Assembly: GCA_963706595.1 (NCBI GenBank)
Contig: OY970166.1
Coordinates: 512,001 to 576,000, forward strand
Source of the DNA: an uncultured cyanobacterium
GTDB lineage: Bacteria; Cyanobacteriota; Cyanobacteriia; Cyanobacteriales; Nostocaceae
Reading direction: 5' to 3'
Length of the DNA: 64,000 bases
Shown piece after piece: positions 45,550-62,181 of the stretch; position 1 is the first letter of the stretch; each line of letters begins with the position of its first letter. A model generated the notes under the pieces. That model did no database searches and had not been told where the DNA came from. It was given only the letters and a program-made list of their open reading frames with translations. Position numbers and translations under genes: made by a program.

Positions 45550-45654
45550 TTATCAGTTGTGAGCAAGTCTAGGTAGGCGCGGGTTTAGCAATATCCCCGT
45601 TAATCATCAAGGATATCTGTGAACCCGCCCCTACTCATAACATTTTTTGCTCAC

Positions 45655-46080
45655 TTAAAATACATCTACCCGACCATCATTCAGGATATACACAGAGCGA
45701 TCGCCTGGGAAACTCTCATTAGGACGTAATTCTACCTGCAATGTGCCAAAGTTAGGTTTCGAGACATTCGCCTTTATCGATAACCCCGTATCATCCCAGA
45801 AAACCAGAGAAATATTTGGTGTTGTCCCGTGTCCATGCTCCAATATTAATTCCTCTCCTGATTGTAGGGAAATAGTATCAGTGGTGGCAGGTTTTTGTAA
45901 CTTCAGCAAGCGGGGAGTACGATTTACCACTTGAATGCGGATACGTTGACCAGGCGTAAACTGCATGGGACGCGCGCCACAATTAGAAGCACAAGTTCCA
46001 GCTAGGGTAACTTGCGAAGCATTTGTTGATGTCAATAAAAAAGCTGTAGCGATTAAAGTTGCTGCTATTAACTTAACCAT
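45655..46080 (-). CDS. Hypothetical exported protein
   Basis: Signal peptide followed by CASNC and a beta-rich domain. Confidence 0.7.
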   Translation of the reverse strand: MVKLIAATLIATAFLLTSTNASQVTLAGTCASNCGARPMQFTPGQRIRIQVVNRTPRLLKLQKPATTDTISLQSGEELILEHGHGTTPNISLVFWDDTGLSIKANVSKPNFGTLQVELRPNESFPGDRSVYILNDGRVDVF

Positions 46081-46113
46081 ATATAGGACTCCTATCTGAT
46101 TTTTGTTAGCTTA

Positions 46114-46240
46114 CCCTACTCCCTACTCCCTACTCCCTACTCCCATTTCCCCATTTCCCCATTCCCCACTCCCTACTCCCTACTCCCCATTCCCCATTCC
46201 CCACTCCCCACTCCCCACTCCCTACTCCCCACTCCCTATT
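46114..46240. repeat. Long STRR tract (CCCTACT/CCCCACT/CCCCATT)
   Basis: Roughly 18 heptamer units. Confidence 0.9.
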
Positions 46241-47675
46241 TCCAAGAAAAAATTTCCAAATGAACAGATGCTTCATTCCCCAACACTTTTTTCCCTCGTT
46301 CAGGTAAGACGATATCAGCTATAAAACCATCTGCATTAGGATTAGGATTGATGGGAATGTGCGGCTCTTCATTTTCATAATTCCAGGCGTACTTAGCCGT
46401 GTAGAAACCATCTAGGACTGTGACATCGACGATCAGATAGTCAGACCAAAGGGGTAATTGATCAATATGGCTACCAAACAACCAGTCTCGCTCTTTTTTG
46501 ACAAAAGAATGCAACGCTAATCTAATGGCATATCTACAGGTAGAATCACCACTAGCTGAGTAGCTGGGAACCATGAAAGCTGTAAATAGTGGTATGGGTA
46601 TTCCCCTAGTTAATTCCAGTGTGATGGGACAATAATGAGCGATACTTTGTTCATGTATAGCCACAGGAAGACCACGCAGGGCAGATCGGACTTCCATCTG
46701 ATAAAAAGTATCGTTGCGATCGCCTAATTCAACATGATTAAGGGATAGTTTCACCTTAATATCACCAAATAAAAAGCGTTGCAGATTTTGATAAGCTTCT
46801 TCCGAGTTGACCATTCCATAACGCCCACCATGAGTCCGATAAATATAGGCGCGATGCGATCCTCTGACATAGGCTTTCTCAGTCTGAACTAGACCATCAC
46901 TTTGAAGACCTACCATCTTCTGTGCAGCACCAAAAGCTACATCGTAATCACGGGCATTTGTACCAATAATACAAAAAACTCGGTCTGTTGGAAAAGCGTC
47001 ATCAAGGCTTTGAGCATCAAAATCGTCAGGTAATAAATCTTTTTGCTGTGTTTGAGGTGTTAAATATTCATACATCCTCTGGGGTCCAAAATCATCACTA
47101 TTATTTAATTTGAGTGAATCTCTAATTTTTTCAATTACGCCATTGCCAATTTCAAAATGAATGCCACCATGAGGTGTACCATAAGTAAATAACTTATCAA
47201 TATGATCAATAGCTTGCTCGTTCTGCTCTGGATAAATCTTCTGTATGAGACTGCGACAAACAAGACCTCCCATAGAGTGGGCAATTAAGTAAACTTGATT
47301 TGCACCTGTGTGAGATTTAACAGTATTAATCAAGTCTCTCAAACGCGCTGCTACTTGCTCTATTGTCAGTCTGATAGCTGTCTGGGAACCCCAACTTTGG
47401 GTGGTTTCATCATAAAATCGGTAAATCCAAATAGATTTCGGGTTTTTGCTCAACTGTTGATCGTGCTGATGGTCAAAAACAGGTCGATAACCGTGATCAG
47501 TTATGAGTCGCAGCAGTGGACTCTCGAAAAAAAACTGCTCCGGGTTTCCTTGCACACCCACCCGAATATGTGCCGAGCCATGATTAAATCCATAAAATGG
47601 ATCTTCCACCGTTTGCTCAACGTCTTTATCTGAGCCGGCATATCCACGGACATAGATGATGGGTAAATATTTCAT
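46236..47675 (-). CDS. Alpha/beta hydrolase (lipase/PGAP1-like) with a C-terminal beta-rich domain
   Basis: IIYVRGY, nucleophile elbow AHSMGG, YGTPHGG, SDGLV. Confidence 0.82.
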   Translation of the reverse strand: MKYLPIIYVRGYAGSDKDVEQTVEDPFYGFNHGSAHIRVGVQGNPEQFFFESPLLRLITDHGYRPVFDHQHDQQLSKNPKSIWIYRFYDETTQSWGSQTAIRLTIEQVAARLRDLINTVKSHTGANQVYLIAHSMGGLVCRSLIQKIYPEQNEQAIDHIDKLFTYGTPHGGIHFEIGNGVIEKIRDSLKLNNSDDFGPQRMYEYLTPQTQQKDLLPDDFDAQSLDDAFPTDRVFCIIGTNARDYDVAFGAAQKMVGLQSDGLVQTEKAYVRGSHRAYIYRTHGGRYGMVNSEEAYQNLQRFLFGDIKVKLSLNHVELGDRNDTFYQMEVRSALRGLPVAIHEQSIAHYCPITLELTRGIPIPLFTAFMVPSYSASGDSTCRYAIRLALHSFVKKERDWLFGSHIDQLPLWSDYLIVDVTVLDGFYTAKYAWNYENEEPHIPINPNPNADGFIADIVLPERGKKVLGNEASVHLEIFSWK

Positions 47676-47833
47676 TATTTATTGTTTTAAAGTTAAATTT
47701 AGCTTTTAGCCGCAGTTGCAATTAAAAGCTACCAGAAGATATATTTTTTGAGATGAATTTGTAAGAATTTGTATTATTTGGACTAAAGTTAGCGAATTTA
47801 GCATTTGTGTCCATCACCCAAATTTTTCACATC

Positions 47834-49087
47834 CTAATCAACCGTTGCTCCTTCCAACCAAATCTCTGCATCATCTGCGAGTAACTTTTCTGCTGCTTCC
47901 AACATAGATGCGGCGATATCTTTTAAATCTTCACGATTATTCAAGTAAGTTTTGAGCGCTGACCTGGGGTCAATACTGCTACTGGCGGTCAATTCCGGGA
48001 TTCTGGGGCGAGCCAATTGGCTGACTAATTCGGCTTGAATCGTATAGTTGTGAGCCGGAGTTAAGGCTGTATGGATGGAAGCGCCATCAATTATATCCAT
48101 CTGTTCCGAACGGAGTTTATAAATTAACCGCACGACAGCATCTTCAATATTATGTTTAGCGATCGCCTTCATTAAAGCAGCTTGTGGATCATCCGCTTTA
48201 GATATATCCACCTCTATAGTGCGGAAAGTCCGAACAGGTAAAGGACAAAATTCCCAATGAGCGCTTCCTCGCTCCAGTTCAATCATCACATAGCCTTTAT
48301 CTTCTTTTTCTTCGCTAAAATCAACCCGTTCAATACTTCCTGGATAAATCACCGGCGGGTTATTAGATTTATTCAAATTCTGGTGACGGTGGACGTGTCC
48401 TAATGCCACATAATCAAAACAAGGTCGCGTCAGCAAAGATAGCGGTAAAGTAAAACCCTTACCCACAGCTAAAAAACGCTCGGCTCCTAAAGTCGCATTG
48501 TCAGCCATTAAGTGAGCCAACAGCACAGTGGGAACTTCAGGGTCAAGACGGCGAATCTCTCCTTCTAAAACCACTTTTAAACGTTCTGTTAACAGTTCAT
48601 TCACCTCAGCCAAAGAAGACTTTTCCGTTTCTTGACGAGTCATCAAAGTTGAACGGGTGAGCCAAGGTAAGGTAATTACTTGGACTTTGCCATGACGAGT
48701 TTGAATACTGTGAGTGGTGACAGTATCACCCACAACAAAACCCCTCACTCCCAAAGTGCGGTAAATATTTAAACTCGCTCCTCCTACTCCTTGGGAATGT
48801 TGGTCATGGTTCCCGACTAACAACACCGTGGGAATATCTGCATCCACAAGCCGGCGAAACTGATTAGCAAAAGCTTCTTGCACATAAGGCGCTGGTGTAG
48901 CATCTGGGAAGGCATCACCGCCAAATATCACCAAATCCACCGTATCTTCTAGCGCTCGGTCAATACATCGAGATAATGTCTTGACAAAATCCTCTAATCG
49001 TGTATTTAGTCCTGTGGCGGGATTCATGCGTCCGTGGGAGAAACCGCTTCCTATATGGATGTCGGAAAGATGCAGGATCTTAATCAT
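47834..49087 (-). CDS. sbcD: Exonuclease SbcCD subunit D
   Basis: HLSDIHIG, GGDAF, VGNHD, YVALGHVH, YPGSIERVDFSE. Confidence 0.93.
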   Translation of the reverse strand: MIKILHLSDIHIGSGFSHGRMNPATGLNTRLEDFVKTLSRCIDRALEDTVDLVIFGGDAFPDATPAPYVQEAFANQFRRLVDADIPTVLLVGNHDQHSQGVGGASLNIYRTLGVRGFVVGDTVTTHSIQTRHGKVQVITLPWLTRSTLMTRQETEKSSLAEVNELLTERLKVVLEGEIRRLDPEVPTVLLAHLMADNATLGAERFLAVGKGFTLPLSLLTRPCFDYVALGHVHRHQNLNKSNNPPVIYPGSIERVDFSEEKEDKGYVMIELERGSAHWEFCPLPVRTFRTIEVDISKADDPQAALMKAIAKHNIEDAVVRLIYKLRSEQMDIIDGASIHTALTPAHNYTIQAELVSQLARPRIPELTASSSIDPRSALKTYLNNREDLKDIAASMLEAAEKLLADDAEIWLEGATVD

Positions 49088-49313
49088 ATTTCTCAGGTGT
49101 TAGTTGACTTTTGTCTAACATATTAATGACTATTTAACTGGAAATTACTTACCTAGACTCGCCAGCATCCGGCGTTTTTATCTTCTTTGCAACATTGATT
49201 TTTGCAGTAATTTATATGATTTATACAAAATTTTGCCGTAAACAAGAAATTTCACTTAAAATATATAGTATAAAAAAACCCTATTTTGATTAACTGCTAG
49301 AAATCGGAAACCA

Positions 49314-52300
49314 ATGAGTAACAGCATGAATCTGGCAATTCAGGAGAAGATCAAGGTTTGGAAGGATAAACTTGCAGATTTCAGTAGCAGTAACCCTCTG
49401 CTTAATTTTAGTGAAAAGAGCAAAAAACCAAGGGTTAATATTTCTACACCACCTCTAATCCTATTTCAAAAATTTGTAGAAAGCGACTCTGGCGAATTTC
49501 CTGTCAAAGATTTGGAAACTGAACAAACAGATAGTGACCGCATCAAGCTTCTTGATAAACTGCGTAGTGAAGCAAAGAAAACATTAGAGGAAAAGGGTTT
49601 TGTTAGTTTATTCTTAGTCCTTGGTACTTTAAATTGGTTTGATACGGCAAATCATCAGGACAGGAAGGAAAAGCTAGTCTCCCCTCTGTTGCTGATTCCA
49701 TTAGAACTACACAAAAAAGGGAAAAAACCACCAGAATATAAACTTTATCTTGCTGATCAGGAAATTTCTGTTAACTTTATTTTAGCAAATAAGTTACAAG
49801 ATGAATTTAATATCAAATTACCTGAGTCTGAAACAATTCAAGAATTGGGATACGAAGGATTTATGAATACGGTACGTGATGCTATAGCTGAAAAACAGAA
49901 TTGGAACCTAGAAGAAATTGCTTATATTACCTCGTTTGAGTCCTTCAAAACAGCGATGATAAAGGACTTAGAACAACATCAAGAACTAATTGCTACTCAT
50001 CCGATTCTGCAAGGAATTGCTCTGAAAGAACAACTAGAGAATCAGGTTGGTAGTTTCAAGACCATCATAGACAAGGAACTGGATACAATTAATCCTAAAT
50101 TAGTATATCAAATATGTGATGCTGATTTTAGCCAGCAAGTAGTAATAGAAGCTGCCAAAGCAGGATTTAGTTTTGTAGTACAAGGACCGCCAGGAACAGG
50201 TAAAAGTCAAACTATTGCTAACATCGTTGCTGAATTAATTGGAAAAGATAAAAAAATTTTATTAGTTGCTGAAAAGCAAACTGCTCTTGATGCTGTATAT
50301 AAAAAATTACTGGAATCTCAGCCTTCTCTTAAAGAGGTATGTTTAAATTTGCATCATAGAGGTACAAACAAGATACAGAATTTGCTAGAAGAATTATATA
50401 AAACTAAAAGTCTGCTATTGCAAAGAAATGAATCAAAATCACAAGAGTCTAAATGGGACATCTTTTTTCAAGAATTGCAAGACTGCCGAGCAACTATAAA
50501 TAAACACAACGAAATGTTACATAAAACATATCAGCCGATTAATAAATCTGCTTTTGAGATATATGGGAAAATTCTTAAGCTAGAAAATGAAAAAGTTCCA
50601 ACATTAGATTTTAATATTTATAACTTAAAAGATTGGTCAGAAGATGTTTTACTGAAAGCAAGTCAATTAGTTGAAGAGCTTCAAAAATTTGAGGCTATTT
50701 TTATGGGAACACAAAACACTATCTGGTCAAATAGTCCTGTAAAAGTGTGGGATGCCTATAACAACAGTAACTTACGTCAAAATATTAATGATTTGCGTGA
50801 GGGAATTGAACTTGCCATAAACACAATAAATCGTTTAGGCGAATTATTAGCAATAGAACCTAATCATAAATTAGTAATTTTAAATTTACTAAGTTTAGAT
50901 ATGCTTTATTCAGCAGTAGGATATCTTGTTGCAGTGCCTCCCAAGTTTCCGCTAGTCTGGCTACAACACACAAATTTAAGTAGTTTGCAAAAGTATTTTT
51001 CTGAGCTTAAAAATGATATTTCTTATATTGAATGTGTAAATAGCGATTTCCAGAAAAATTATATTAACGATTTTTTAAGTTTAAATTTATCTGAATTACG
51101 AAAATTTCAGCAAAAACTAGAGACTCATAGAAGTATTTGGCGTTATTTTCAATGTAGTTATTGGCGCAGCCGCAAGAAAATAATAAAATTTCTAAAACTA
51201 AAAAAAGGGGTTACAAACAAACAAATAATTGGTGATATTAATAAAGCAATAAAACGTCAAGAATTTTTGTACAAGTTGAAAAATTTAAATCATGAATATA
51301 ATCAAGAATTTCGGGCGTATTTTGACGAAAAACTCCCAGAAAAAATTCCAGATTCAAATGCTATTGAACAACATTTAAATTGGTTGAAATTACTACAAAA
51401 GTATGAGTTACCTTCTCAGGGAGTAGCAGCAGCTATTTCTTCATCAGAAAATTTACAAGAACTGAGCAGTTTACTAAAGGATTTAGAAAATTCTCAAAAC
51501 TTAATCAAAGAAGGTTTCAAATTCATCAGGAAACACTTTCCACAGCATCCAATGACGAAAGTGGGCGAATTGGAAGAAAAACTTTTGCCAGAAGTAGAAG
51601 ATTTTATTAATAAATCCGAAAGTGAACTAAGTAGTTTTCAACAATATTTAGATTGTCAGCAAATAATAGAAAAACTTGAGTATTTTGGAGCTAAAGATTT
51701 TTTATCAAAACTGAAAAATACTAGCATAGCACCAGATTTTTGGGTTTCAATATTACGGAAAGGTGTTTATCATAACTGGCGACAATACATATATGATAGT
51801 TGTGAACTGCGAAACTTTAATCCAAAAATGTATGAAGAGAAAATACAAAAATTTTGCAAACTTGATGTTCAACAATACCAAGTAGCAATAGAGCGATTAC
51901 AACAACTCCATGCTAAACGTTGGCAGGAATGGTCTACGCAGCCAGAGGCGAAGAAACAGATTCAATTGCTTGAAAGCCAACGTAAATTAAAAACAGGTCA
52001 TCAAAAAATTCGTCAATTCATCAAAAATGCCCCTCAACTTGTTACTACCCTCAAGCCTTTTTGGCTAATGAGTCCACTAGCAGTTAGCCAGTATATAGAC
52101 CCAGATGCGGTAAAGTTTGATGTTGTAATCTTTGATGAAGCTTCCCAGATATGTACTGAAGATGCTGTAACCGCAATTATGCGAGCAAAGCAGGTAATTG
52201 TGGTTGGTGATGATAAACAACTACCACCAACATTTAATCCTGGTAACGCTTCTGGTAAGTCAGATGACGAACAAGAAGTATATGAAAGTTTGCTCAATGA

Positions 52301-53330
52301 ATCTTCAATTGTTCTAGAAAAATTTACTTTAAAGTGGCATTATCGTAGCAGACATGAAAGTTTAATTGCTTTTTCAAACCAAAAATTTTATGATTCAGAG
52401 CTTTTAACTTTCCCAAACCCGCTCAAAGATTCTAATCTTGGTGTTCATTTCCATTATGTTGAAGATGGTATATATACACCTGGTGATAATGGGCAAAATA
52501 ATATCCGTGAAGCTCAAACTGTAGCCGAAATTGCACTAAAGCATTTGCACGAAAATAAACAAAACCCCAATTTTTCTCTAGGAATTGTTACTTTAAATGA
52601 GCTACAGGCAGAAACTATACAGGACAAATTAAAGGAACTTATTTTAAGACATCCAGAAATTGAAGAAGAATCTGATAAATATTTTATTAAACCACTGGAA
52701 CGGGTTCAAGGTGATGAACAAGAAGTAATTCTTTTCAGCTTCGGATATGGATTTAATGCTGAAAAGAAGTTAAGTTTCAATTTTGGTCCTTTAACTAGAG
52801 CAGGAGGGAGGCGGCGCTTAAATGTAGCAATAACTCGCGCTCGAACTAAGTTTGTGTTAGTAGCTTCCTTACAAGCAGCCGATTTGCAACCGACAAAAGA
52901 AAACGCAGAAATAACACTGGTGAAAGAGTATTTTGAATACGCTTATAGTGGGGGTAAAAAATTAGACAATCAGGATCATTTTTATTTTTCAGAGTCTGAT
53001 TTTCTTTTTGAAGAATATATATATCAAGCTTTAACTAAACAAGGATACAAAGTAAAAAAACGGGTAGGTCGTTCAGCCTTTCCTATTGATTTAGCAGTGA
53101 TAGATCCCCGAAATACAGAGACAGAAGAATTTATTTTGGGTATTGTCTGTGATGGGAAAATTTACCATAAATATTCTACAGCAAGAGATCGAGATCGCCT
53201 ACGTATTAAAATTCTCAAAGATTTGAAATGGAATATTTACAGAGTCTGGTCTAGTGAATGGTTTCGTGACCGAAATGGTCAAATAGAAAAGCTTGTGGAA
53301 CATATAGAAAATCTATTGAATCCGAAATAG
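49314..53330 (+). CDS. DUF4011 + SF1 (UPF1/DNA2-like) helicase + C-terminal Vsr/REase-like domain (Hhe-like defence protein)
   Basis: WKDKLADFSSSNPLLNF, QGPPGTGKSQTI, VIFDEASQ, VGDDKQLPP, WHYRSRHESLIAFSN, RRLNVAITRAR, IDLAV...CDG..YH...ARDRDRLR...W..YRVWS. Confidence 0.88.
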   Translation: MSNSMNLAIQEKIKVWKDKLADFSSSNPLLNFSEKSKKPRVNISTPPLILFQKFVESDSGEFPVKDLETEQTDSDRIKLLDKLRSEAKKTLEEKGFVSLFLVLGTLNWFDTANHQDRKEKLVSPLLLIPLELHKKGKKPPEYKLYLADQEISVNFILANKLQDEFNIKLPESETIQELGYEGFMNTVRDAIAEKQNWNLEEIAYITSFESFKTAMIKDLEQHQELIATHPILQGIALKEQLENQVGSFKTIIDKELDTINPKLVYQICDADFSQQVVIEAAKAGFSFVVQGPPGTGKSQTIANIVAELIGKDKKILLVAEKQTALDAVYKKLLESQPSLKEVCLNLHHRGTNKIQNLLEELYKTKSLLLQRNESKSQESKWDIFFQELQDCRATINKHNEMLHKTYQPINKSAFEIYGKILKLENEKVPTLDFNIYNLKDWSEDVLLKASQLVEELQKFEAIFMGTQNTIWSNSPVKVWDAYNNSNLRQNINDLREGIELAINTINRLGELLAIEPNHKLVILNLLSLDMLYSAVGYLVAVPPKFPLVWLQHTNLSSLQKYFSELKNDISYIECVNSDFQKNYINDFLSLNLSELRKFQQKLETHRSIWRYFQCSYWRSRKKIIKFLKLKKGVTNKQIIGDINKAIKRQEFLYKLKNLNHEYNQEFRAYFDEKLPEKIPDSNAIEQHLNWLKLLQKYELPSQGVAAAISSSENLQELSSLLKDLENSQNLIKEGFKFIRKHFPQHPMTKVGELEEKLLPEVEDFINKSESELSSFQQYLDCQQIIEKLEYFGAKDFLSKLKNTSIAPDFWVSILRKGVYHNWRQYIYDSCELRNFNPKMYEEKIQKFCKLDVQQYQVAIERLQQLHAKRWQEWSTQPEAKKQIQLLESQRKLKTGHQKIRQFIKNAPQLVTTLKPFWLMSPLAVSQYIDPDAVKFDVVIFDEASQICTEDAVTAIMRAKQVIVVGDDKQLPPTFNPGNASGKSDDEQEVYESLLNESSIVLEKFTLKWHYRSRHESLIAFSNQKFYDSELLTFPNPLKDSNLGVHFHYVEDGIYTPGDNGQNNIREAQTVAEIALKHLHENKQNPNFSLGIVTLNELQAETIQDKLKELILRHPEIEEESDKYFIKPLERVQGDEQEVILFSFGYGFNAEKKLSFNFGPLTRAGGRRRLNVAITRARTKFVLVASLQAADLQPTKENAEITLVKEYFEYAYSGGKKLDNQDHFYFSESDFLFEEYIYQALTKQGYKVKKRVGRSAFPIDLAVIDPRNTETEEFILGIVCDGKIYHKYSTARDRDRLRIKILKDLKWNIYRVWSSEWFRDRNGQIEKLVEHIENLLNPK

Positions 53331-53385
53331 CTACAGATGTTAGTCTAATCCTTAAATACAAAGTTGCCAGGATACAATTTTTGAA

Positions 53386-55269
53386 ATGGAATCTACAGAA
53401 TTAGAAGAATTTTTAATAACTATACAAAAACTCCAATCGATAATGATTGGAGTTGCTACTAATCAACAGGAATATCGGATTCAAGATTATGAAGAGGAAT
53501 ACAAAGAACTTTATAGAGAAATAGTATCGCAAATAGAAGACTTTCAATCTGAGGGACTATCTATCGAAAATCCTAACAATTTTCAGTCACTCTGGGATTG
53601 GTATAAACATTGGAAAGCTAATTTAAGCACATTAGCTTGGCGAGGAGCGTATATTCACAACCTTTATCAAAATATTTATCATCAAATCAACATTATTATA
53701 TGCAAAAACTATATCAAACGAACTTCGCTAGAAATGTTAGATCATGAAATAGAACCTTCACAAATAGAAGAACTAAAAGTCCAAATAAAGACTATACAAT
53801 CTATGATGATAGAGGTTGCTAGCGAAGGAAATGCTATTTCTTTAATTCAGGATCATGAAGAAAACTATAATCAAATATATAGAGCAATTTATTTTAAGAT
53901 AGAAATTCTTAAAGCAAAAGGAATATCAGTTTGTAATCCCAATCAATTTTGGTCACTTTGGCAATGGTACAGTTTTTATTCAGAACAGTTAGAGAATGTA
54001 ATATCTGTCCGCCAAGAATACATAGATAACCTTTATGCAAATGTTCTCAAACCGATAGAGAGAGCATTAAAACAACACCGGAAAAAAACAACTTCTATTC
54101 AAGAATTTACTCAAGATTTACAGCGTCGATTTAACCAACTAAATGCTAGTCAACTTAACGATTTCACAGAAATAAGTACAAATTCTAGCAAAATTGTAGA
54201 AACATTTAGCCAGAGCATCGATACTTGCTTGCAGGAAGAAGGTTCAAAACAGATTCTCAATACATTCTCTGTTGCACCTACTCAATCTGTAGAAAATGTG
54301 TTACTTCAAACCGTAAATTATACTTCAGCTTGGACAGATAAAAATATTATGAATCCAGAAATATTTTTAGATCAAAAAGATATTAAACCATTAATTACGG
54401 CACTAAATTATTTTGCTCTTAAAGTGAATGTAGGCAGTGACCGCCAAAATATTTTAAAAAATTCTGATCTTGATACTGCGTTTTTAAGTAATTTAAGATA
54501 TGATACTGAACCTAGTATATTTTCTCAAGCATTAGTATCAGGATTCAAAACTTATCAAATCTCTTATAATCAGTTTAATTATCATCCATTAGTAAATTTA
54601 CTTAAATACCTAAGTGATGTCGCAGATATTTATGGATTCTCAGACCAAGCGGTAGAATTATTTATGAGATTAGTCGAAAAAGGTCAGGAAAACTTAAAAG
54701 CCTTGGCTGCTCGAAATACAGTTGCTAGAATCGAATCCCCTATAGGAAATGCGATAGGGACAGGCGTATTAATTACAAATAATTTCTTATTAAGTTGTAA
54801 TCATATTTTCACCAAGAACCAAGTAACAAAAGCATGGGTACGTCTTGGCTACCAAGCTAGTAATTACGAATCAGAAAAAGATGTATTAGAATTAGAAATT
54901 ATGAGGAGAAATTCTCGTCCTGATTATGCTTTACTCAAAATCAACACTCCAACACAACATAAAGCTATTTCTATTAATGAAACTTCGATATTAGATAGCG
55001 GACAAGAAATTCGTATTATTCATCATCCGCAGGGAAATCCTGTAGTAATTTCGGACTTGGGACAGATTATGCAAGTAGGAGATGATTACATTGACCATAA
55101 TCTGAAAACAGATCACGGCTCCTCTGGCGCACCAATTTTGAATCGCCAATGGGAACTGATTGCAATTCATCAAGGAAATCCGGGTATAGGACGTGCCGTG
55201 ACTCCAGGTTCAACAGGAGGTATTCCCATTCGTGCTATTTGGAATGAAATTTCAACGTATTTAGGTTAA
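53386..55269 (+). CDS. Multidomain trypsin-like serine protease (tandem N-terminal repeat, EAD-like helical domain, protease)
   Basis: Triad motifs LSCNHIF, PDYALL, TDHGSSGAP. Two copies of an approximately 100-aa unit containing NPN.F.SLW.WY. Confidence 0.85.
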   Translation: MESTELEEFLITIQKLQSIMIGVATNQQEYRIQDYEEEYKELYREIVSQIEDFQSEGLSIENPNNFQSLWDWYKHWKANLSTLAWRGAYIHNLYQNIYHQINIIICKNYIKRTSLEMLDHEIEPSQIEELKVQIKTIQSMMIEVASEGNAISLIQDHEENYNQIYRAIYFKIEILKAKGISVCNPNQFWSLWQWYSFYSEQLENVISVRQEYIDNLYANVLKPIERALKQHRKKTTSIQEFTQDLQRRFNQLNASQLNDFTEISTNSSKIVETFSQSIDTCLQEEGSKQILNTFSVAPTQSVENVLLQTVNYTSAWTDKNIMNPEIFLDQKDIKPLITALNYFALKVNVGSDRQNILKNSDLDTAFLSNLRYDTEPSIFSQALVSGFKTYQISYNQFNYHPLVNLLKYLSDVADIYGFSDQAVELFMRLVEKGQENLKALAARNTVARIESPIGNAIGTGVLITNNFLLSCNHIFTKNQVTKAWVRLGYQASNYESEKDVLELEIMRRNSRPDYALLKINTPTQHKAISINETSILDSGQEIRIIHHPQGNPVVISDLGQIMQVGDDYIDHNLKTDHGSSGAPILNRQWELIAIHQGNPGIGRAVTPGSTGGIPIRAIWNEISTYLG

Positions 55270-55289
55270 TTGAACAGAGAAATAAATTT

Positions 55290-56378
55290 ATGAATTTTTA
55301 CCAGAGTTTATTTGACACTTTCAGCCGTGAGGCTCCAAAATATAAAACCCTTTTCCTGCCAAAATATCGAGTTGATGTGGATTATGATGACAACCCCATC
55401 GTTGCAGGTGAAGCCTATTGTCGGATTTTGCTAGTGGAGATGCGCTTGGCGAAAGATATGGAATGGCTCAAGCAACGGTATCCCCTTGTTCATGTGGCTG
55501 TTCGATTCAATCATGCTGGTGAATGCGTAACAATTCCTTACCTAGCTGCACCTGGGCAATTGGAAAAATCAATAAAAGATAATTTGGATAGAGTCATTCA
55601 GTGCAACTATCCTGTGACATCCTTATTTCCTTTCAATAGTGGCTTAGTCGAGTTACAGGCAGGCTTATTTAGTGTAGCTAGTGATGACTCCATCGGAAAA
55701 TTTATTAAGGCGATGGGGAGATTTTCTGAATTGCTACCTGTGCCAGAACTTTCAAACGTTATCAAGCTAGCAGAACCAGTATATAGAGGTATTGAGGATT
55801 TACTCAATATCGGTGAGCGTCGCCTAGAACTAGGCTATCAACAAACTTTTTCTGAAGCTAATGGAGGTGGTAGCAATTCCCTGAAAGCAGGTTATTTTGC
55901 AGCAATTTTAGCACAGGAACACAAAATTAATAATGATAATCTTTGTATTGTCAATGATAGCCTTTGTCTTGGTTCACCTGGCACTACAAAAACTTTTTTA
56001 CGTGACGGCAAACCCCTAGAAGGTTACAGCTATATGTTATTTCGTATAGAAAAGCGCAAACACCAAGATTGGAACTTATTAAACAGTATAAAAGAGCTAG
56101 TAATTAAAGCTCAAAATGCTATTTGTTCAGGAGAATATGAGAAAGTAAATAAATTTATTTTACCGGCTATTAAAATAAGTGTTCTCCAAAGTCCTGATGT
56201 AACCAAAGCAGACCGACGCAATATGATACTAAAAATTGAAGAAGAATTGAAAGAACTTGGTTTGCAGTCTACAACAGTCCAAAAGCGATCGCTTTATTCA
56301 ATTATGCAGCGACCCTTGCCAGAAATTGATCCAGCAACAGAAGCCGAATTAGCTTCCTTAGAGCAGCTTTTTAAGTAA
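55290..56378 (+). CDS. Uncharacterised 362-aa protein, third gene of the operon
   Basis: Starts 20 bp after the protease stop; no recognised catalytic motif. Confidence 0.8.
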   Translation: MNFYQSLFDTFSREAPKYKTLFLPKYRVDVDYDDNPIVAGEAYCRILLVEMRLAKDMEWLKQRYPLVHVAVRFNHAGECVTIPYLAAPGQLEKSIKDNLDRVIQCNYPVTSLFPFNSGLVELQAGLFSVASDDSIGKFIKAMGRFSELLPVPELSNVIKLAEPVYRGIEDLLNIGERRLELGYQQTFSEANGGGSNSLKAGYFAAILAQEHKINNDNLCIVNDSLCLGSPGTTKTFLRDGKPLEGYSYMLFRIEKRKHQDWNLLNSIKELVIKAQNAICSGEYEKVNKFILPAIKISVLQSPDVTKADRRNMILKIEEELKELGLQSTTVQKRSLYSIMQRPLPEIDPATEAELASLEQLFK

Positions 56379-56575
56379 AAGTGGATGATACTTGTCCACC
56401 GTAATTAGACAAAGGCTATAGTCGGCTTTTCCCACTCAGGCAGATTTTCTAGCCAATACTATGAGAGTTTGTTAAGCAACTTTACAATATTTTAATTTTT
56501 ATAGTGCTTTTATATATATTTATGCGGTTACTGATAAATTAAGAGAATCATAAAAAATAACTGATTTTACAAAAA

Positions 56576-56680
56576 ATGAATAATTCAAATCTGCCTAATC
56601 AATTGGGTCAATCTATGATTATGGGTGCTTTCATCATCTTGACTAGCGTTGCGGTCATCGCCATCATGAATGTTTTTTAA
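56576..56680 (+). CDS. Putative 34-aa single-TM small protein (not in ORF track)
   Basis: MNNSNLPNQLGQSMIMGAFIILTSVAVIAIMNVF*, followed by a terminator-like hairpin. Confidence 0.55.
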   Translation: MNNSNLPNQLGQSMIMGAFIILTSVAVIAIMNVF

Positions 56681-56718
56681 GCATAAATAACGATAAATCC
56701 TAGCAAACAACATTTATT

Positions 56719-56747
56719 AAGCCCCTCTCAATACTGAGTGGGGTTTT
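56719..56747 (+). terminator. Rho-independent terminator-like hairpin
   Basis: AAGCCCCTCTCA-ATAC-TGAGTGGGGTTTT. Confidence 0.6.
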
Positions 56748-56817
56748 ACATTTCTTCACAAAAAGACTTTACAAAAGAATATCATGAGGCGATCGCTAAT
56801 TGAATTCATCCTAGCTT

Positions 56818-57027
56818 TTAATCGTCTAGTAAACTCATCAACGAGTGAATTTCTGGGTCATTTGACTCTGATAATTGATGCTGTAATTCTAATAGTTGGT
56901 TTTTCAACACTTCCGAGGTGTAAACCATATTAGATGTTTGGGCTAGTTTTAATTGACTTTCTTTTATTCTAATCTTTCTTAATAGTTCATCTACCGCATC
57001 AATTGAGTCGTAATCTTGAGAAAACAT
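56818..57027 (-). CDS. Hypothetical small coiled-coil protein
   Basis: MFSQDYDSIDAVDELLRKIRIKE..., preceded by a GGAGG RBS. Confidence 0.7.
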   Translation of the reverse strand: MFSQDYDSIDAVDELLRKIRIKESQLKLAQTSNMVYTSEVLKNQLLELQHQLSESNDPEIHSLMSLLDD

Positions 57028-57404
57028 CAGAACCTCCGCACCGAAGAAACTCCTGGATTTAGACATGAGTTAAGGCGTAGTGTTTCTAACAGCCTCACAC
57101 CCATTCAGATATAAAAATGAACTTGCGAAATTCCACATATCATATATATGATCTCGCCTAGTTTAAATTCTAAAATAAACTATACACTTTATTGAATCGA
57201 ATTTGATAAAAATTATCCTCCAACTATGCGTTGGCGCTACACCTCCAATTGTAAAATCTCAAGTTTTGCTACTATCGCGTAAATGAGGCAAAATCAAGGT
57301 TGGGCTTGGCAAATTTTGGTGATTTTCAGCACTTATCTGCCATTAATAAAAGTTCGGAATCGGTTAAAATAAGCAATAACTCTCAACTTGCTCGTCCTGT
57401 AAGT

Positions 57405-59327
57405 ATGACCATGCACAATTCCGTTGAATTTCAAGACGCTTTTGATGTCATTGTCGTCGGTGCAGGTCACTCCGGTTGCGAAGCAGCCCTTGCTGCTGCC
57501 CGCCTCGGCTGTCGGACTTTGCTACTGACGCTCAACTTAGATAAAATCGCTTGGCAACCCTGTAACCCCGCAGTGGGCGGCCCGGCTAAATCACAGTTAA
57601 CTCATGAGGTGGATGCACTCGGAGGAGAAATTGGCAAGGTTGCAGACCGGACTTACCTGCAAAAGCGCATCCTCAACTCTTCACGAGGTCCGGCGGTGTG
57701 GGCATTACGCGCTCAAAGTGATAAGCGCGAATATGCGGCTGTGATGAAAACCATTGTGGAAAACCAAGAAAATCTGAGCATTCGTGAAGCAATGGCTACA
57801 GACTTGGTGCTGGGTGCTAATGATGACGTAATTGGTGTTGAGACTTATTTTGGTGTGGCTTTTGGCTGCAAAGCATTAATTTTGACCACCGGCACATTTT
57901 TGGGTGGTAAAATTTGGGTGGGTAACAAATCTATGCCAGCCGGACGGGCTGGGGAATTTGCGGCTGAGGGTTTGACACAAACTTTAAACCGCTTGGGCTT
58001 TGAAACCGGAAGGTTAAAAACTGGTACGCCCGCACGGGTAGATAAGCGGTCAGTTGACTACAGCAAAATGACTATCCAGCCAGGGGATGAAGAAGTACGC
58101 TGGTTTAGTTTTGACCCGGATGTGTGGATAGAAAAAGAACAAATTCCTTGCTACATTACCCGCACGACGGCGGAAACTCATCGGCTAATTCGGGAGAATT
58201 TACATTTATCACCGGTTTATGGTGGTTGGGTGGAAGCTAAAGGACCTCGCTATTGTCCCAGCATTGAAGATAAAATTGTGCGCTTTGCTGATAAAGAAAG
58301 TCACCAAATATTTATTGAACCGGAAGGAAGAGATATTCCGGAATTATATATCCAAGGTTTTTCGACAGGGTTGCCGGAAACTTTGCAATTGCAAATGTTA
58401 CGCAGTCTCCCCGGTTTAGAAAATTGTACGATGCTGCGTCCAGCTTATGCTGTGGAATATGACTATTTACCAGCAACTCAGTGTTATCCCACACTGATGA
58501 CTAAGAAAATTGCTGGTTTATTCTGTGCTGGACAGATTAACGGGACAACAGGCTATGAAGAAGCCGCAGCTCAAGGAATTGTGGCGGGAATTAATGCGGC
58601 GCGGTTGGTTCGTGGTGAAGAAATGATTGTTTTTCCCCGTGAACACAGTTATCTTGGCACGCTGGTTGATGATTTGTGTACTAAAGATTTACGGGAACCT
58701 TACCGAATGCTGACTAGCCGTTCGGAATATCGGTTACTGCTGCGTTCTGATAATGCTGACCAACGGCTGACTCCTCTGGGACGAGAAATCGGCTTAATTG
58801 ATGACCGCCGATGGAATTTGTATACTGCTAAACAAGCAGAGATTACCACAGAAAAAGCCCGACTATATGCTACCAGAATTAAAGAACATGATGAAATTGG
58901 TCAGGCGATCGCATCTATATCCCAACAAACAATTAAAGGTTCAATTACTCTAGCTGAATTATTGCGCCGTCCAGGATTTCATTACGTTGACCTCGATAGC
59001 TACGGACTGGGAAATCCCAACCTCAAGCAAGCAGAAAAAGAAGGCGCAGAAATTGACATCAAGTATTCTGGCTATCTCGCTAGACAACAAAATCAAATAG
59101 AACAAATTGCCCGTCAAGCACACCGCCAGCTACCTGCGGACTTGGATTACAACACAATTGATACCCTTTCTAAAGAAGCACGGGAAAAACTCACGAAGGT
59201 CAAACCCCTGACTCTCGGTCAAGCAGCACGCACTGGTGGAGTGAATCCGGCAGATATTAACGCTTTGTTAATCTATTTAGAATTGCGTAAAACCAAGAGC
59301 CAATCAGAGTTTCCGGCATTAGCGTAA
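57405..59327 (+). CDS. mnmG: tRNA uridine-5-carboxymethylaminomethyl(34) synthesis enzyme MnmG/GidA
   Basis: [58 protein letters not shown]. Confidence 0.97.
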
Positions 59328-59559
59328 TTTAAAGTTGATCAAGGTTGGGTATAGTAAAGGTGAAGGAAGTAGTATGATAGATGACATGAATTAAGTAATG
59401 CCATCATCAGCAGTTTCCTGATTTAAATTGAATTTAATACTACCAAGCCATCAAGTCGTCTAATTTTGACGAGGGCTTGGAGGCTTAATGCAAAAATCTT
59501 GATTTCCAGGCATAGGGGCGGCTCTGCCCCGTCCTGGCAGCCACAACCCAAAATGCCTT

Positions 59560-60858
59560 ATGTTACAAGCATCCAGAACCCATCTGATTATTCCAGAACC
59601 ATCAGAAGACTTGATTACCAACGAGCCGTGGTCGATAGATTTCTATGCTGATGGTTTGATGGATGAACTCTTTGCCGATATTGACGAAATTTTGGATGTG
59701 AGTGGGAATTTGCCTGACCATACTTTAAGGCATGGCAGTCATACACCACGTTCCATAAAACAAACTTCTTCCAGCGACGACTTGGAAAATTTGGGTGAGT
59801 CTGCCACACCAGTGGCTTCAGAATATGAACATCTGCAAACAATTAATGTGCCGCAGATTGTTTCATCAAACTCCCTCACCCGCACCAGAAAAACAGTTTC
59901 GCAAGGGAAGAAGGAGCCAGTTGGTAAAGTTGTAGTTAATCCTCCAGGGGCAATTACTCAGCACCAGAAAACGAGGCTAAATCTGGGACAGCTGCTAATT
60001 GCCGGCGTGGCGATCGCAGGTACAATATATATTGTGCAGTCTGGATTGCTGACTCTTCTGACTGCCAAATTGTCTCAACCAGATGTCTATCAACCACAGA
60101 CGCAGTTATCTCCCAAAGTAGATGTTCAAGCAGAATTGGTTGACTATATGCTGGGAGCGCTGGCAATTATAGACAAGCAAGGAGCAAGCAATAATAATCG
60201 CACGTCTGTTTATCCTAAAATAGGCAATCGGGGAGTTTCTAACTTTTCATCTGTAGCTGGTAATTTAGCACCACCTCTAGCTGCTAACAACACACCACCT
60301 GTTCCTAATCGTTCGACAAATGTTGTCGAACGCATTTATATTCCTGTTTATCAAGCGCCGTCACCAATGCGCTATGCGCCACCACCTACTCCCGGCGCTA
60401 CCGCAGGTCAAGCACAGGTAGCAAATAATTTGAAACCCCCTTTCAACGCGGTGCAACCACCAGCCAAGCCGGGGAATGCCAATATAGTAGCTGCTGTGCG
60501 CCCAGAACTTAAACCAGTACCTACGCAAAAAGCACCAATTACCGTGCGACAGCCATCTGTACCTCTGCCGGGATTACCTGTTGCACCAGTCCGAACAACA
60601 TCAGCGCCCACAAATGCCCAACAACCAGCATATTTAGAAACCTCATCTGCAACAATAGCTGCTCATACCTTAGCGGGATTACTAGAATTAGGTGAAAAAT
60701 CTGCGGCTTTATTTGAATTTGAAGGCGTAACCCGCCGCATTAATATGGGAGAAAGCATTGGAGCTAGTGGTTGGACTTTAGTCGGTGTTGCCAACGGCGA
60801 AGCTATCGTTCGTCGCAATGGCGAAGTGCGGTCAATTTTTGCAGGACAGAAGTTGTAA
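59560..60858 (+). CDS. Hypothetical membrane protein with a Pro-rich linker and small C-terminal beta domain
   Basis: One TM segment, VERIYIPVYQ, C-terminal GLLELGEKSAALFEFEGVTRRI..GESIGASGWTL. Confidence 0.75.
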   Translation: MLQASRTHLIIPEPSEDLITNEPWSIDFYADGLMDELFADIDEILDVSGNLPDHTLRHGSHTPRSIKQTSSSDDLENLGESATPVASEYEHLQTINVPQIVSSNSLTRTRKTVSQGKKEPVGKVVVNPPGAITQHQKTRLNLGQLLIAGVAIAGTIYIVQSGLLTLLTAKLSQPDVYQPQTQLSPKVDVQAELVDYMLGALAIIDKQGASNNNRTSVYPKIGNRGVSNFSSVAGNLAPPLAANNTPPVPNRSTNVVERIYIPVYQAPSPMRYAPPPTPGATAGQAQVANNLKPPFNAVQPPAKPGNANIVAAVRPELKPVPTQKAPITVRQPSVPLPGLPVAPVRTTSAPTNAQQPAYLETSSATIAAHTLAGLLELGEKSAALFEFEGVTRRINMGESIGASGWTLVGVANGEAIVRRNGEVRSIFAGQKL

Positions 60859-60928
60859 AACTGGTCATGCTTTTGTGCTATCTCAATTTATAGCTAAGTG
60901 GCGATTTTAAAACCAATACAAATTTACG

Positions 60929-60959
60929 ATTAACCTGCTTAAGCGGGTTAATTATTTTT
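60929..60959 (+). terminator. Terminator-like hairpin
   Basis: ATTAACCTGC-TTAA-GCGGGTTAAT followed by a T-rich run. Confidence 0.55.
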
Positions 60960-61092
60960 ATTCCTACAATATTTAATACTGTAGCATGAATTTTGGTTAT
61001 TTAGTCAAATTTACATAAACTAAAAAAAAATATTCGTAGATTGGGTAGAACAAAGTGAAACCAGTCCTTACACGGTTGAGTTTTTCGGTTTT

Positions 61093-61965
61093 CTAGAAAC
61101 AGGTGCGGATCAGAGTTGCTTTTCTGAAATCTGTACTTTTAAGTGTGGCTGCTGTGAAATTAGCATCAGTTAAATCAGCACCACGAAAGCTTGTACCACG
61201 AAAAGCAGCAAACGCAACAGCACTTTTTTGAATCAAAGAGTACTTTTCATCGCCTTTCATAGCTCGCCAAGCAATGTAAGCACTAAATAAAGTTCCGGCA
61301 AAGGCGATGGCTGCCGTGATGGGAAAGGCTCCCGTGATGGCAATGGCTCCCTCGAAGGCGAAGGCGAAGGCGAAGGCGATCGCTCCCATGATGGCAAATA
61401 CAAAGGCTCCCACAAAGGCGATGTCTCCCACGATGGCGATGGCTAAGGCGATGGCAAAGCCGATGGCAAAGCCGATGGCTAAGGCGATGGCAAAGCCGAT
61501 GGCAAAAGCGATGGCTAAGGCGATGGCAAAGCCGATGGCGATATATAGGGTTCCGGCGATGCTAAAAGCAATGGCGATGGCTCCCGCGATGGCGATGGCT
61601 AAGGCGATCGCGGAGTTTAATCTTTGCACAACCATAACGATGAAAACCATAATGACTACTATTAAGGCAGTCCAACCTGTAACCTGACTTTCTATGGTTG
61701 AACTGTCAAATATCAAAGAGATTAAGTATCCAGTGAAGGCGGAGAAAAATCCGGAAATTGCAGAGAATAACCACGAAACACTGACTAGAAAAATCGCCCA
61801 ACGTTTTTGTAGTCCGCATTGAGCATGGCTAAAGTTGGCATTCTGAAGATTAGCCCCAGTAAAGTTTGCTCCTCTGATATCTGCATAGCTAAAGTTTGCA
61901 CCCTCAAGGTTTTGACCTTTAAAGGAACGTCCACGGAGATTTTGACTGGAGAAATCCTGGTACAT
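61093..61965 (-). pseudogene. Pentapeptide-repeat membrane protein, apparently truncated
   Basis: A(D/N)(F/L)xx repeats flank an Ala/Ile/Phe-rich TM tract. TAG falls mid-repeat and the frame continues KTEKLNRVRTG before running into a REP-like repeat. Confidence 0.7.
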
Positions 61966-62181
61966 AGATTAATAATTAATAATTTGTAATTCGTATTTGA
62001 AGGAGCGCCCACGGAGATTTTACAGGTGAATTTTTGATACATTCTGATAATCATTTTTAGTATGTATTTCGTTTCGGTCTTTTAGGGCAATATTTTGTTT
62101 TTTATTTGTTGTTTGTGTGCTTAAAACCAGAAATATCAGGATGATGCCATAATTCAGCAATACGGAGATCAAAAAGTTTCT

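Follow-up and report, generated by a model that had tools for sequence, protein, structure and literature searches.

A helicase-protease-ORF3 locus in an uncultured Nostocaceae cyanobacterium as a candidate defense operon

Here we report on three adjoining genes, encoding a helicase, a protease, and a third protein that we call ORF3 (open reading frame 3), at positions 49314..56378 of a 64,000-nucleotide (nt) stretch of DNA (the window) from an uncultured cyanobacterium of the family Nostocaceae (contig OY970166.1). Several described systems resemble parts of this trio. Gasdermin is activated by cleavage of its C-terminal tail. The same mode of activation is given for Pepco in passages of PMC12642450. 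Prometheus is a single protein with four essential domains, DUF3320 among them (passages of PMC13700489), and Hachiman HamMAB combines a helicase, a trypsin-like protease, and a separate substrate gene, with all three activities required (passages of PMC12799240). The iSTAND2 systems, in which MoxR and vWA genes take part, were described by Kaur et al. in 2021 (passages of PMC8195603).

The trio is like HamMAB in consisting of a helicase, a trypsin-like protease, and a separate gene for a putative latent effector. Unlike in HamMAB, the helicase belongs to another family, the protease is fused to two other domains (P2N and EAD8) instead of HamA, and the putative substrate is not an MBL nuclease. 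The trio appears to be a real, undescribed defense operon with two uncharacterized parts, and a role in conflict or defense is highly probable. We postulate that it is a three-gene abortive-infection (cell-suicide) system with a full chain from sensor through protease to membrane effector, a proposal that we hold to be evenly balanced between right and wrong. We found no description of the trio, of P2N, or of the ORF3 family in a literature search that did not extend to journals behind a subscription or to supplements of bioRxiv preprints and of PMC12642450; two supplements of PMC7159879 gave no matches.

Helicase and protease genes

The first two genes and their parts are as follows.

49314..53330, plus strand: gene 1, 1338 amino acids (aa), a DUF4011-SF1 (superfamily 1, DNA2/NAM7-type) helicase-REase_MTES_1575 protein, PDC-S37/Prometheus-like; proposed sensor.
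53145..53147, plus strand: Val1278 of gene 1, which replaces the Glu of the G-I-E-C-D-G motif in the C-terminal nuclease.
53386..55269, plus strand: gene 2, 627 aa, consisting of two P2N repeats, a linker, EAD8, and a V8-like trypsin protease.
53392..54081, plus strand: P2N repeats (aa 3-109 and 124-232), an unnamed four-helix domain of ~107 aa; proposed helicase-coupling adaptor.
54373..54714, plus strand: EAD8 (aa 330-443 of gene 2), a Pfam domain.
54715..55266, plus strand: trypsin-fold protease, with H473, D513, and S580 and an S1 pocket of T575 and H595.

ORF3 (gene 3) follows on the same strand. The gaps measure 55 nt between genes 1 and 2 and 20 nt between genes 2 and 3, exactly as a first-pass annotation of this DNA had reported for three co-oriented genes, and each gene is present in a single copy in this genome.

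Like Prometheus, PDC-S37, and Hhe proteins, gene 1 combines DUF4011 (residues 19-161 in Pfam), an SF1 helicase of the DNA2/NAM7 type that carries a long insertion (AAA_11 and AAA_12), and an MTES_1575 nuclease domain (REase_MTES_1575, 1232-1331). The first-pass annotation had called it Hhe-like, but the scores favor a Prometheus/PDC-S37-like protein. The top PADLOC model is PDC-S37 (1161 bits, residues 64-1334, profile positions 90-1341 of 1550), for which a literature search found no paper, and the NCBIfam ProA/Prometheus model NF058533 gives 955 bits, below its cut-off of 1500; the Hhe models reach 405 bits in PADLOC and 633 bits in NCBIfam (NF042953, below its cut-off of 2000). Gene 1 nonetheless differs from Prometheus and Hhe in its length, in falling below both NCBIfam cut-offs, in its altered nuclease motif, in being followed by a P2N-effector gene, and in having no match to DUF3320 in Pfam at an E value of ≤0.1; the protein stops 7 residues past the REase match.

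The helicase motifs of gene 1 are all intact, including Walker A GPPGTGKS at 291-298 and DEASQ at 941. At the position of the nuclease Glu, Val, Ile, or Met occurs in 27 of the 29 trio helicases with a readable motif (the window counted), and Glu is present in 10/10 stand-alone helicases from a scan of the order. Val1278 predicts that the nuclease activity of gene 1 has been lost.

The description of gene 2 as a multidomain trypsin protease is borne out by the EAD8 and Trypsin_2 (458-594) matches in Pfam, and the tandem P2N stands in front of them. The best solved relative of the protease is V8 glutamyl endopeptidase (E = 1.2e-14), with which the Thr and His of the S1 pocket align; these two positions determine the preference of V8 and 3C-like proteases for Glu or Gln. 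In an alignment of 40 of the 50 protease domains found, the triad was conserved (H, 39/40, one sequence being truncated; D, 40/40; S, 40/40), as was the pocket (His595, 40/40; Thr575, 34/40, with Ala in the other 6). By its triad and its S1 Thr and His, the gene 2 protease would be of the V8/glutamyl endopeptidase type, with predicted cleavage after Glu or Gln.

The two P2N copies are 37% identical to each other and are modeled as all-helical bundles with a predicted local distance difference test (pLDDT) score of 94.5. Their fold matches were generic four-helix bundles only (best Z, 9.4), and an Atlas search with P2N gave nothing usable. P2N is like AbiJ-NTD1-5 in being a helical domain of ~100 aa that precedes HEPN, TIR, and other effectors (passages of PMC3710099); it is unlike them in occurring as a tandem pair behind a helicase and in lacking a match to the AbiJ-NTD Pfam models, either in gene 2 or in six other P2N proteins. 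We also considered homotypic pairing with a P2N copy in the helicase itself, and rejected it: the P2N profile matched no helicase ORF and nothing elsewhere in the genome.

ORF3 and its predicted cleavage site

The third gene and its parts of interest are as follows.

55290..56378, plus strand: ORF3, 362 aa, with an N-terminal amphipathic helix, a C2-like beta-sandwich (40-258), a three-helix bundle (259-325), and a two-helix C-terminal tail; proposed latent effector.
55686..55811, plus strand: ORF3 hairpin (aa 133-174), with DSSP helices 133-146 and 154-174 inserted in the sandwich; candidate membrane-engaging element.
56259..56270, plus strand: G324-L325-Q326-S327, predicted protease site, cut after Q326, which would free a 36-aa tail of ~4.1 kDa.

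The first-pass annotation did not recognize the family of the third protein, and neither did we: scans of Pfam, PADLOC, and NCBIfam with ORF3 gave no match at an E value of ≤0.1. There are 130 close relatives of ORF3. We aligned 103 sequences (the query plus 102 out of 119 further listed proteins, with fragments and some near-copies omitted), and a structural model built from them had a pLDDT of 84.

The clue to how ORF3 might be controlled lies in this alignment. Positions 324 to 327 are occupied by G (98 sequences) or S (5), L (103), Q (75) or E (28), and A (40), S (32), or G (31). A variable stretch follows, and then a conserved S-L-x-x-I-M tail. In 96 of the 103 proteins, the [G/S]-L-[Q/E]-[A/S/G] pattern is found a single time, and the pLDDT falls to 74 at residues 321-330, between flanking blocks above 90. 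In this alignment, then, a fixed [G/S]-L-[Q/E]-[A/S/G] motif stands in a linker before a short tail. The strongest single clue that we have is the combination of a fixed L-[Q/E]-small motif, placed in a linker that is modeled with low confidence, and a neighboring gene for a V8-type protease. We predict a cut after Q326, and we consider it likely that the protease of gene 2 cuts ORF3 at this residue. The residue after His595 in the protease was tried as a covariant of Q or E at the P1 position, and this was not supported (Arg occurs with Q 12 times and with E 3 times). The ORF3 homologue of locus L055 and protein P0124 have His at the predicted P1 (L-H-G and L-H-S), which may mark a change in what the partner protease cuts.

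In fold comparisons, the ORF3 sandwich gave weak but repeated matches to C2 domains, led by that of cPLA2 (Z, 6.5; root mean square deviation, 3.4; 118 residues aligned). C2 matches over residues 40-258 had Z values of 6.0-6.5, many C2 entries lay at 5.6-6.3, tied with helical-bundle matches, and Foldseek found PI3K matches to the ORF3 model (E = 1.5e-4). Neither a gasdermin nor a beta-barrel was among the fold matches listed, a sequence search of the PDB reached at best E = 0.054, and Atlas matches were to unnamed clusters only. The hydrophobic moments of hairpin helices 1 and 2 were 0.60 and 0.51 in the close alignment (103 sequences) and 0.48 and 0.38 in a distant alignment; the amphipathic pattern is thus conserved despite a mean identity of 25%. 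That ORF3 acts on membranes has, in our estimation, about an even chance of being correct. In the BFVD database of viral models, a 323-aa protein of Hokovirus HKV1 (A0A1V0SF49) resembles the ORF3 model (E = 1.2e-6; template modeling [TM] score, 0.42), far above the other viral entries, and is a possible giant-virus relative of ORF3.

An alternative is that ORF3 is a zymogen, an enzyme acting, for example, on lipids and activated by loss of its tail, as MBL and alpha/beta-hydrolase effectors are. Conserved polar residues in the distant alignment (Y43, 100%; R45, 89%; E50, 71%; H68, 71%; N106, 79%; E254, 83%; D260, 87%) would suit such a role. Among 126 diverse ORF3 sequences, however, only Y43 and P114 are invariant, which makes ORF3 unlikely to be an enzyme, and no enzyme fold was matched. 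We regard the zymogen hypothesis as very improbable indeed.

The wider ORF3 family comprises 1,315 representatives at 50% identity (E ≤ 0.001), of which 269 remain at E ≤ 1e-30. Among the best 150 of the 1,315 representatives, all 11 of those longer than 700 aa are fused to a protease (CHAT, 6; C25, 3, two of them just below the Pfam cut-off; caspase, 1; subtilase, 1). In the CHAT, caspase, C25, and S8 fusions, the ORF3 part is the N terminus. A Pfam-confirmed protease also adjoins ORF3 in 6 of 10 distant loci, with a caspase in L120 and L124 (in the latter, inside a MoxR-vWA operon), a papain in L123, and both a caspase and an EAD1-trypsin in L134, L135, and L136. In further genomes, ORF3 was found in 1/220 Chloroflexota, 0/220 Pseudomonadota, and 3/300 Acidobacteriota and is therefore rare. 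Three Acidobacteriota loci (L134:8414-14857, L135:1849-7398, and L136:2-7372) encode a protein of about 1,800-2,500 aa without a Pfam match, an ORF3 homologue, a caspase, and an EAD1-trypsin; these operons apparently represent an undescribed sensor with a two-protease cascade.

ORF3 is like gasdermin, Pepco (Trypco1/2), and EACC1 in looking nonenzymatic, in its association, as a neighbor or a fusion partner, with STAND sensors and with proteases of several classes, and in its predicted activation by loss of the C-terminal tail. It is unlike them in its length, its lack of a Pfam match, and its C2-like sandwich with a helical hairpin; the Pfam copy searched included the Trypco and EACC1 models. 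Judged by the Pfam and PADLOC scans and by its size, ORF3 is not one of the ten effector families given in passages of PMC12642450.

If the cascade is real, ORF3 could still be something other than the effector: a protease-bound inhibitor, a membrane anchor, or a scaffold, with cleavage freeing or positioning the protease to attack host or phage proteins. The usual task of a C2 domain is to bring other domains to a membrane, the N-terminal position in the fusions is that of a pro-domain or anchor, ORF3 has no strongly hydrophobic segment, and other effectors lie downstream in MoxR-vWA loci. Protease inhibitors, however, are usually class specific, and with the nuclease Glu lost, the window holds no other effector except the protease itself. 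The conserved amphipathic hairpin also speaks against this alternative, as does the association of five or six unrelated protease classes with one domain, which is the pattern of a substrate, as for gasdermin and MBL (passages of PMC12642450). On balance, we find the anchor, inhibitor, or scaffold role unlikely, and we continue with ORF3 as the latent effector.

Helicase-P2N and protease-ORF3 modules

A scan of GTDB genomes yielded 60 ORF3 loci, in which most trio loci come from related Nostocales and their counts are not independent. The protease gene lies directly upstream of ORF3 in 48 loci, near a broken ORF3 in 4, and at a distance in 1, and it is absent in 7. The test set by the first-pass annotation, whether the helicase ever co-occurs with the protease and ORF3 in other genomes, did not overturn its idea: the helicase is upstream of ORF3 in 30 of the 60 loci. 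P2N is present in 28 of these 30, the exceptions being two loci (L056 and L057) in which the protease gene has been deleted. Of the helicase-free loci, 22 have 4.5 kb or more of upstream DNA, and none of these 22 has P2N. Another 8 loci, of which 3 contain P2N, do not reach far enough for a verdict.

The trio is a conserved unit but can be divided: it is a helicase-P2N module joined to a protease-ORF3 module, and each module occurs with other partners. In helicase-free loci, the protease-ORF3 pair precedes EAD8-(i)STAND, MoxR, and vWA genes (10/60 by clustering, and also L055 and L119) or lies near NACHT, NB-ARC, or WD40 proteins, some of which carry EAD8. The trio thus shares its EAD8-trypsin and ORF3 pair with the iSTAND2 MoxR-vWA ternary systems. 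Unlike them, the window has no MoxR, vWA, or third-component gene (positions 44000-62000) and no second EAD8, with the helicase and P2N in their place. Under the EAD principle (Kaur et al., 2020 and 2021), a core component encoded in the genome would bear another copy of the EAD found on the effector. The EAD8 profile found only gene 2 in the genome (94% complete; next match, E = 0.074), although it scores partner-type EAD8 weakly (E = 6e-8 to 6e-3), so that a diverged copy may escape it.

The source data of Kaur et al. (PMC8195603) give the arrangement "EAD8+Trypsin_2->?->EAD8+iSTAND2->MoxR->vWA", listed as far as MoxR for Microcystis and Nostoc sphaeroides, among the first 30 of 105 trypsin places. 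Because the layout of the N. sphaeroides row matches that of L119, including a 223-aa iSTAND2, the "?" is very probably ORF3. The passages of that paper neither name nor analyze the "?" gene. The claim that the three-gene combination was unrecognized stands for the trio, which we did not find in the literature covered, and not for the EAD8-trypsin and ORF3 pair, which was already present in those source data.

P2N also has a life of its own. Its profile matched 67 longer proteins, mostly EAD8-trypsins, with four PNP fusions and one TIR fusion; some of the PNP or TIR proteins have P2N in tandem. When 401 cyanobacterial genomes were scanned, 7 had P2N, that of the window among them; three of the others have it in tandem (L148, L150, and L151) and three as a single copy (L149, L152, and L153). 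Every tandem-P2N gene with readable upstream DNA lies behind a helicase, namely in the 28 trio loci, L148, L150, L151, and L126, a metagenome contig that reads sbcD-helicase-P2N and then ends. In L148, L150, and L151, the helicase is followed by tandem P2N fused to PNP, SEFIR, and caspase, respectively; these helicase and P2N-effector pairs are candidate two-gene defense systems.

In a tree of 29 C-terminal helicase cores, of which 15 were trio helicases picked for diversity, the 19 helicases followed by P2N fell on one side of a branch with 100/99 support and the 10 stand-alone helicases on the other. The helicase-linked ORF3s are not monophyletic (approximately unbiased [AU] test, P = 7e-6, on a quick tree with groups named beforehand); 16 from Nostocales fall in a 98% branch, and those of L022 and L024 cluster with copies linked to ternary systems or to NACHT. 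Since the helicase-linked ORF3s do not form one clade, the protease-ORF3 pair probably entered the helicase-P2N platform twice or was exchanged later. EAD8 alleles (36-40% or 62-73% identical to that of the window) vary independently of those of P2N and the helicase, which we read as a sign of recombination within gene 2.

These comparisons indicate that the three genes are inherited together, that the helicase motor is intact and its nuclease motif altered, and that the protease triad and V8-type pocket are complete. We propose the following mechanism. The helicase would recognize aberrant nucleic acid during infection (Prometheus has been described as related to R-loop-acting enzymes) and change shape or oligomerize. 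Tandem P2N would pass this change on to the protease to which it is fused, taking the place of the EAD8-EAD8 recruitment that would be used by the same protease with MoxR-vWA or NACHT sensors. The protease would cut ORF3 after Gln326 and remove the 36-residue inhibitory tail, and the freed ORF3 would dock on a membrane by its C2-like sandwich and insert its amphipathic hairpin and N-terminal helix, so that the infected cell might be killed or arrested and the filament spared. We think it fairly likely that the helicase is the upstream trigger. The first-pass annotation had envisaged a cascade of sensor, protease, and substrate; the predicted cut site at Q326 and a P2N adaptor tied to the helicase speak for that scheme, and its Hhe helicase has to be given up.

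Several observations, in addition to the relatedness of the trio loci, weigh against this mechanism. ORF3 has no classical transmembrane segment (the best 19-residue Kyte-Doolittle mean is 1.1, with values of 1.4-1.7 in five distant relatives), and its C2 match is weak (Z < 8; identity, 8-10%) and perhaps reflects a mere common arrangement. In the distant family, the linker is variable and the [Q/E] motif is not kept. We found no shared cut motif there (69/128 sequences have no G-[LFMI] in the linker), and the linkers of three Acidobacteriota ORF3s that occur with trypsin end in G-L-G-L-[E/G], a motif that is not general. Among the best 150 representatives, 0 of the 9 of 420-700 aa have a protease domain. 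At 4 of the 10 distant loci and at L047, no protease neighbor was confirmed: L058 and L154 have STAND-type neighbors, L125 and L156 have neither type confirmed, and candidate proteases in L154 and L156 could not be confirmed. The nuclease Glu, which would be catalytic as in PD-(D/E)xK/Vsr-like nucleases, is retained in trio loci L022 and L024 and in the helicases partnered with PNP, SEFIR, or caspase.

A single P2N also occurs without a helicase, fused to HEPN-type domains, in L149:6534-7343, L152:6225-7193, and L153:6304-7278, and L127 (a 1-kb contig) and L129 are likewise without a helicase. The L149 domain is Ymh by its identity to L127; those of L152 and L153 are AbiJ-like by inspection and have no Pfam match. 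These single-P2N proteins are candidate stand-alone abortive-infection systems.

P2N itself may thus be a sensor. In its fullest form, this alternative holds that P2N senses a phage component or a by-product of the helicase, with the helicase serving as an accessory or a parallel arm without direct contact. The helicase-free HEPN-type genes fit it, and AbiJ-NTDs have been proposed to bind viral components (passages of PMC3710099). P2N does not match the AbiJ-NTD models, however, and all readable tandem-P2N genes stand behind helicases that belong to one clade. For these reasons, we judge sensing by P2N to be improbable and prefer the helicase as the sensor.

History of the site and implications

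The composition of the trio sets it apart from the genome. The first-pass annotation had noted a visibly AT-rich trio with one HIP1 octamer near 56285 and several in recJ, and our counts agree with it. The guanine-plus-cytosine (GC) content is 33.9% in 49314-56378, whereas the genome averages 41.3% (standard deviation, 2.2%, in 7-kb windows), and only 0.13% of the 7-kb windows of the genome have a GC content as low. The octamer GCGATCGC, which we take to be HIP1, occurs once in the trio, at 56285, and 5 times in recJ, with a genome-wide density of 0.78 per kb. The stretch from 48159 to 56285 (~8.1 kb) is free of it; only 23 of 4,323 gaps between octamers in the genome reach at least 8 kb. We take the neighboring genes to be sbcD, recJ, mnmG, and cysH, labels that come partly from the first-pass annotation.

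The first-pass annotation inferred a horizontally acquired unit between sbcD and mnmG, but the trio is no one-off insertion at that place. The GC content of the trio is below that of its flanks in 17 of the 18 trio loci examined, with 0.39 HIP1 octamers per kb in the trio versus 0.75 in the flanks, and sbcD is the upstream neighbor in 19/60 ORF3 loci, from several cyanobacterial families, as well as in L126 and L155. Gene order and the ~55-nt spacing are conserved from Microcoleus to Nostoc, and the closest named trio, in Anabaena sp. strain CCY 9613, is 83-92% identical, from which the host is presumably a cyanobacterium of the heterocyst type. The distribution is nevertheless patchy: ORF3 was matched in 24/201 genomes of the family, several of them with remnants, and in 0/7 of the same genus, and the trio stood beside sbcD in 0/10 same-genus genomes. 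The nearest relative without the trio has a lipoxygenase between sbcD and mnmG. Damaged copies include the following.

L007:7072-7980: decayed gene 2, with EAD8 gone, P2N kept in part, and the protease domain truncated.
L056 and L057: gene 2 deleted, along with part of ORF3.
L009, L017, and L051: gene 2 split.

Patchiness and damaged copies are the usual pattern of defense genes. From the patchy spread, the remnants, and the variable sbcD slot, the trio fits an old accessory cassette that has often been lost or exchanged. In same-genus genomes, the slot upstream of sbcD (L098:2741-4873, L100:2378-4825, L104:10975-12342, and L108:8354-10678) holds a lipoxygenase, kinase-GUN4 genes (two genomes), and a Cas10 gene, and it is a candidate hotspot for accessory genes.

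Such variability would also suit two independent modules that happen to share a hotspot, one a self-sufficient Prometheus-like helicase and the other a protease-ORF3 pair that answers to an EAD8 protein encoded elsewhere. Stand-alone helicases are indeed commoner: in a scan of 301 genomes of the order, the helicase was present in 12/301 and ORF3 in 7/301. The two are adjacent in the window's genome and in G101, and G287 has them adjacent as fragments; in G230, ~80 kb separates them. On the other side, within the set of ORF3 loci P2N keeps to those with a helicase, the nuclease motif is changed only in linked helicases, order and spacing are kept from Microcoleus to Nostoc, and the genome search described above found no further EAD8 protein. 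We regard two independent modules as quite improbable and retain the view of joined modules acting in one pathway.

A promoter scan of the trio gave 33 hits, versus 32.8 by chance, and a terminator scan gave 3, versus 4.8. No convincing terminal repeats were found around the trio, and we claim no mobile-element ends. Downstream of sbcD, 46236-47675 on the minus strand encodes a 479-aa alpha/beta-hydrolase (PGAP1/lipase-like, with a weak DUF7379 match), of a class that elsewhere serves as a caspase-activated effector. We do not count it with the trio: it lies on the opposite strand beyond sbcD and has a normal GC content, none of the 60 ORF3 loci contains a homologue of it, and the closest relative without the trio has kept it. 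Between the trio and mnmG, 56818-57066 on the minus strand encodes an 82-aa helical protein that is 79-85% conserved in trio-less relatives and lies outside the unit. Farther on, 61093-61965 on the minus strand encodes what is presumably a pentapeptide-repeat protein, with a long low-complexity hydrophobic insert of Ala, Ile, and Phe.

Protease-gated death effectors are a central theme of bacterial immunity, but few families of them are known; a 2025 survey has ten. ORF3 may add another: its C2-like fold is unusual, and in the present subfamily the alignment itself shows a predicted cut site. ORF3 would also fill the "?" gene in published MoxR-vWA neighborhoods. Our boldest suggestion, which we offer tentatively and with somewhat more doubt than belief, is that ORF3 founds a new family of protease-gated death effectors, C2-fold proteins whose hairpin opens membranes, and that helicase-P2N is an undescribed plug-in sensor platform. 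If so, one class of effector would be common to trypsin, caspase, CHAT, C25, papain, and subtilase pathways in many phyla, and a Prometheus-type helicase would have passed killing on to swappable effectors (trypsin-ORF3, caspase, SEFIR, TIR, and PNP). The helicase-P2N arrangement would then show how a single-gene, Prometheus-like protein was turned into a sensor for interchangeable effectors, offering a route to what these helicases detect, and the trio would bear on how filamentous cyanobacteria sacrifice infected cells.

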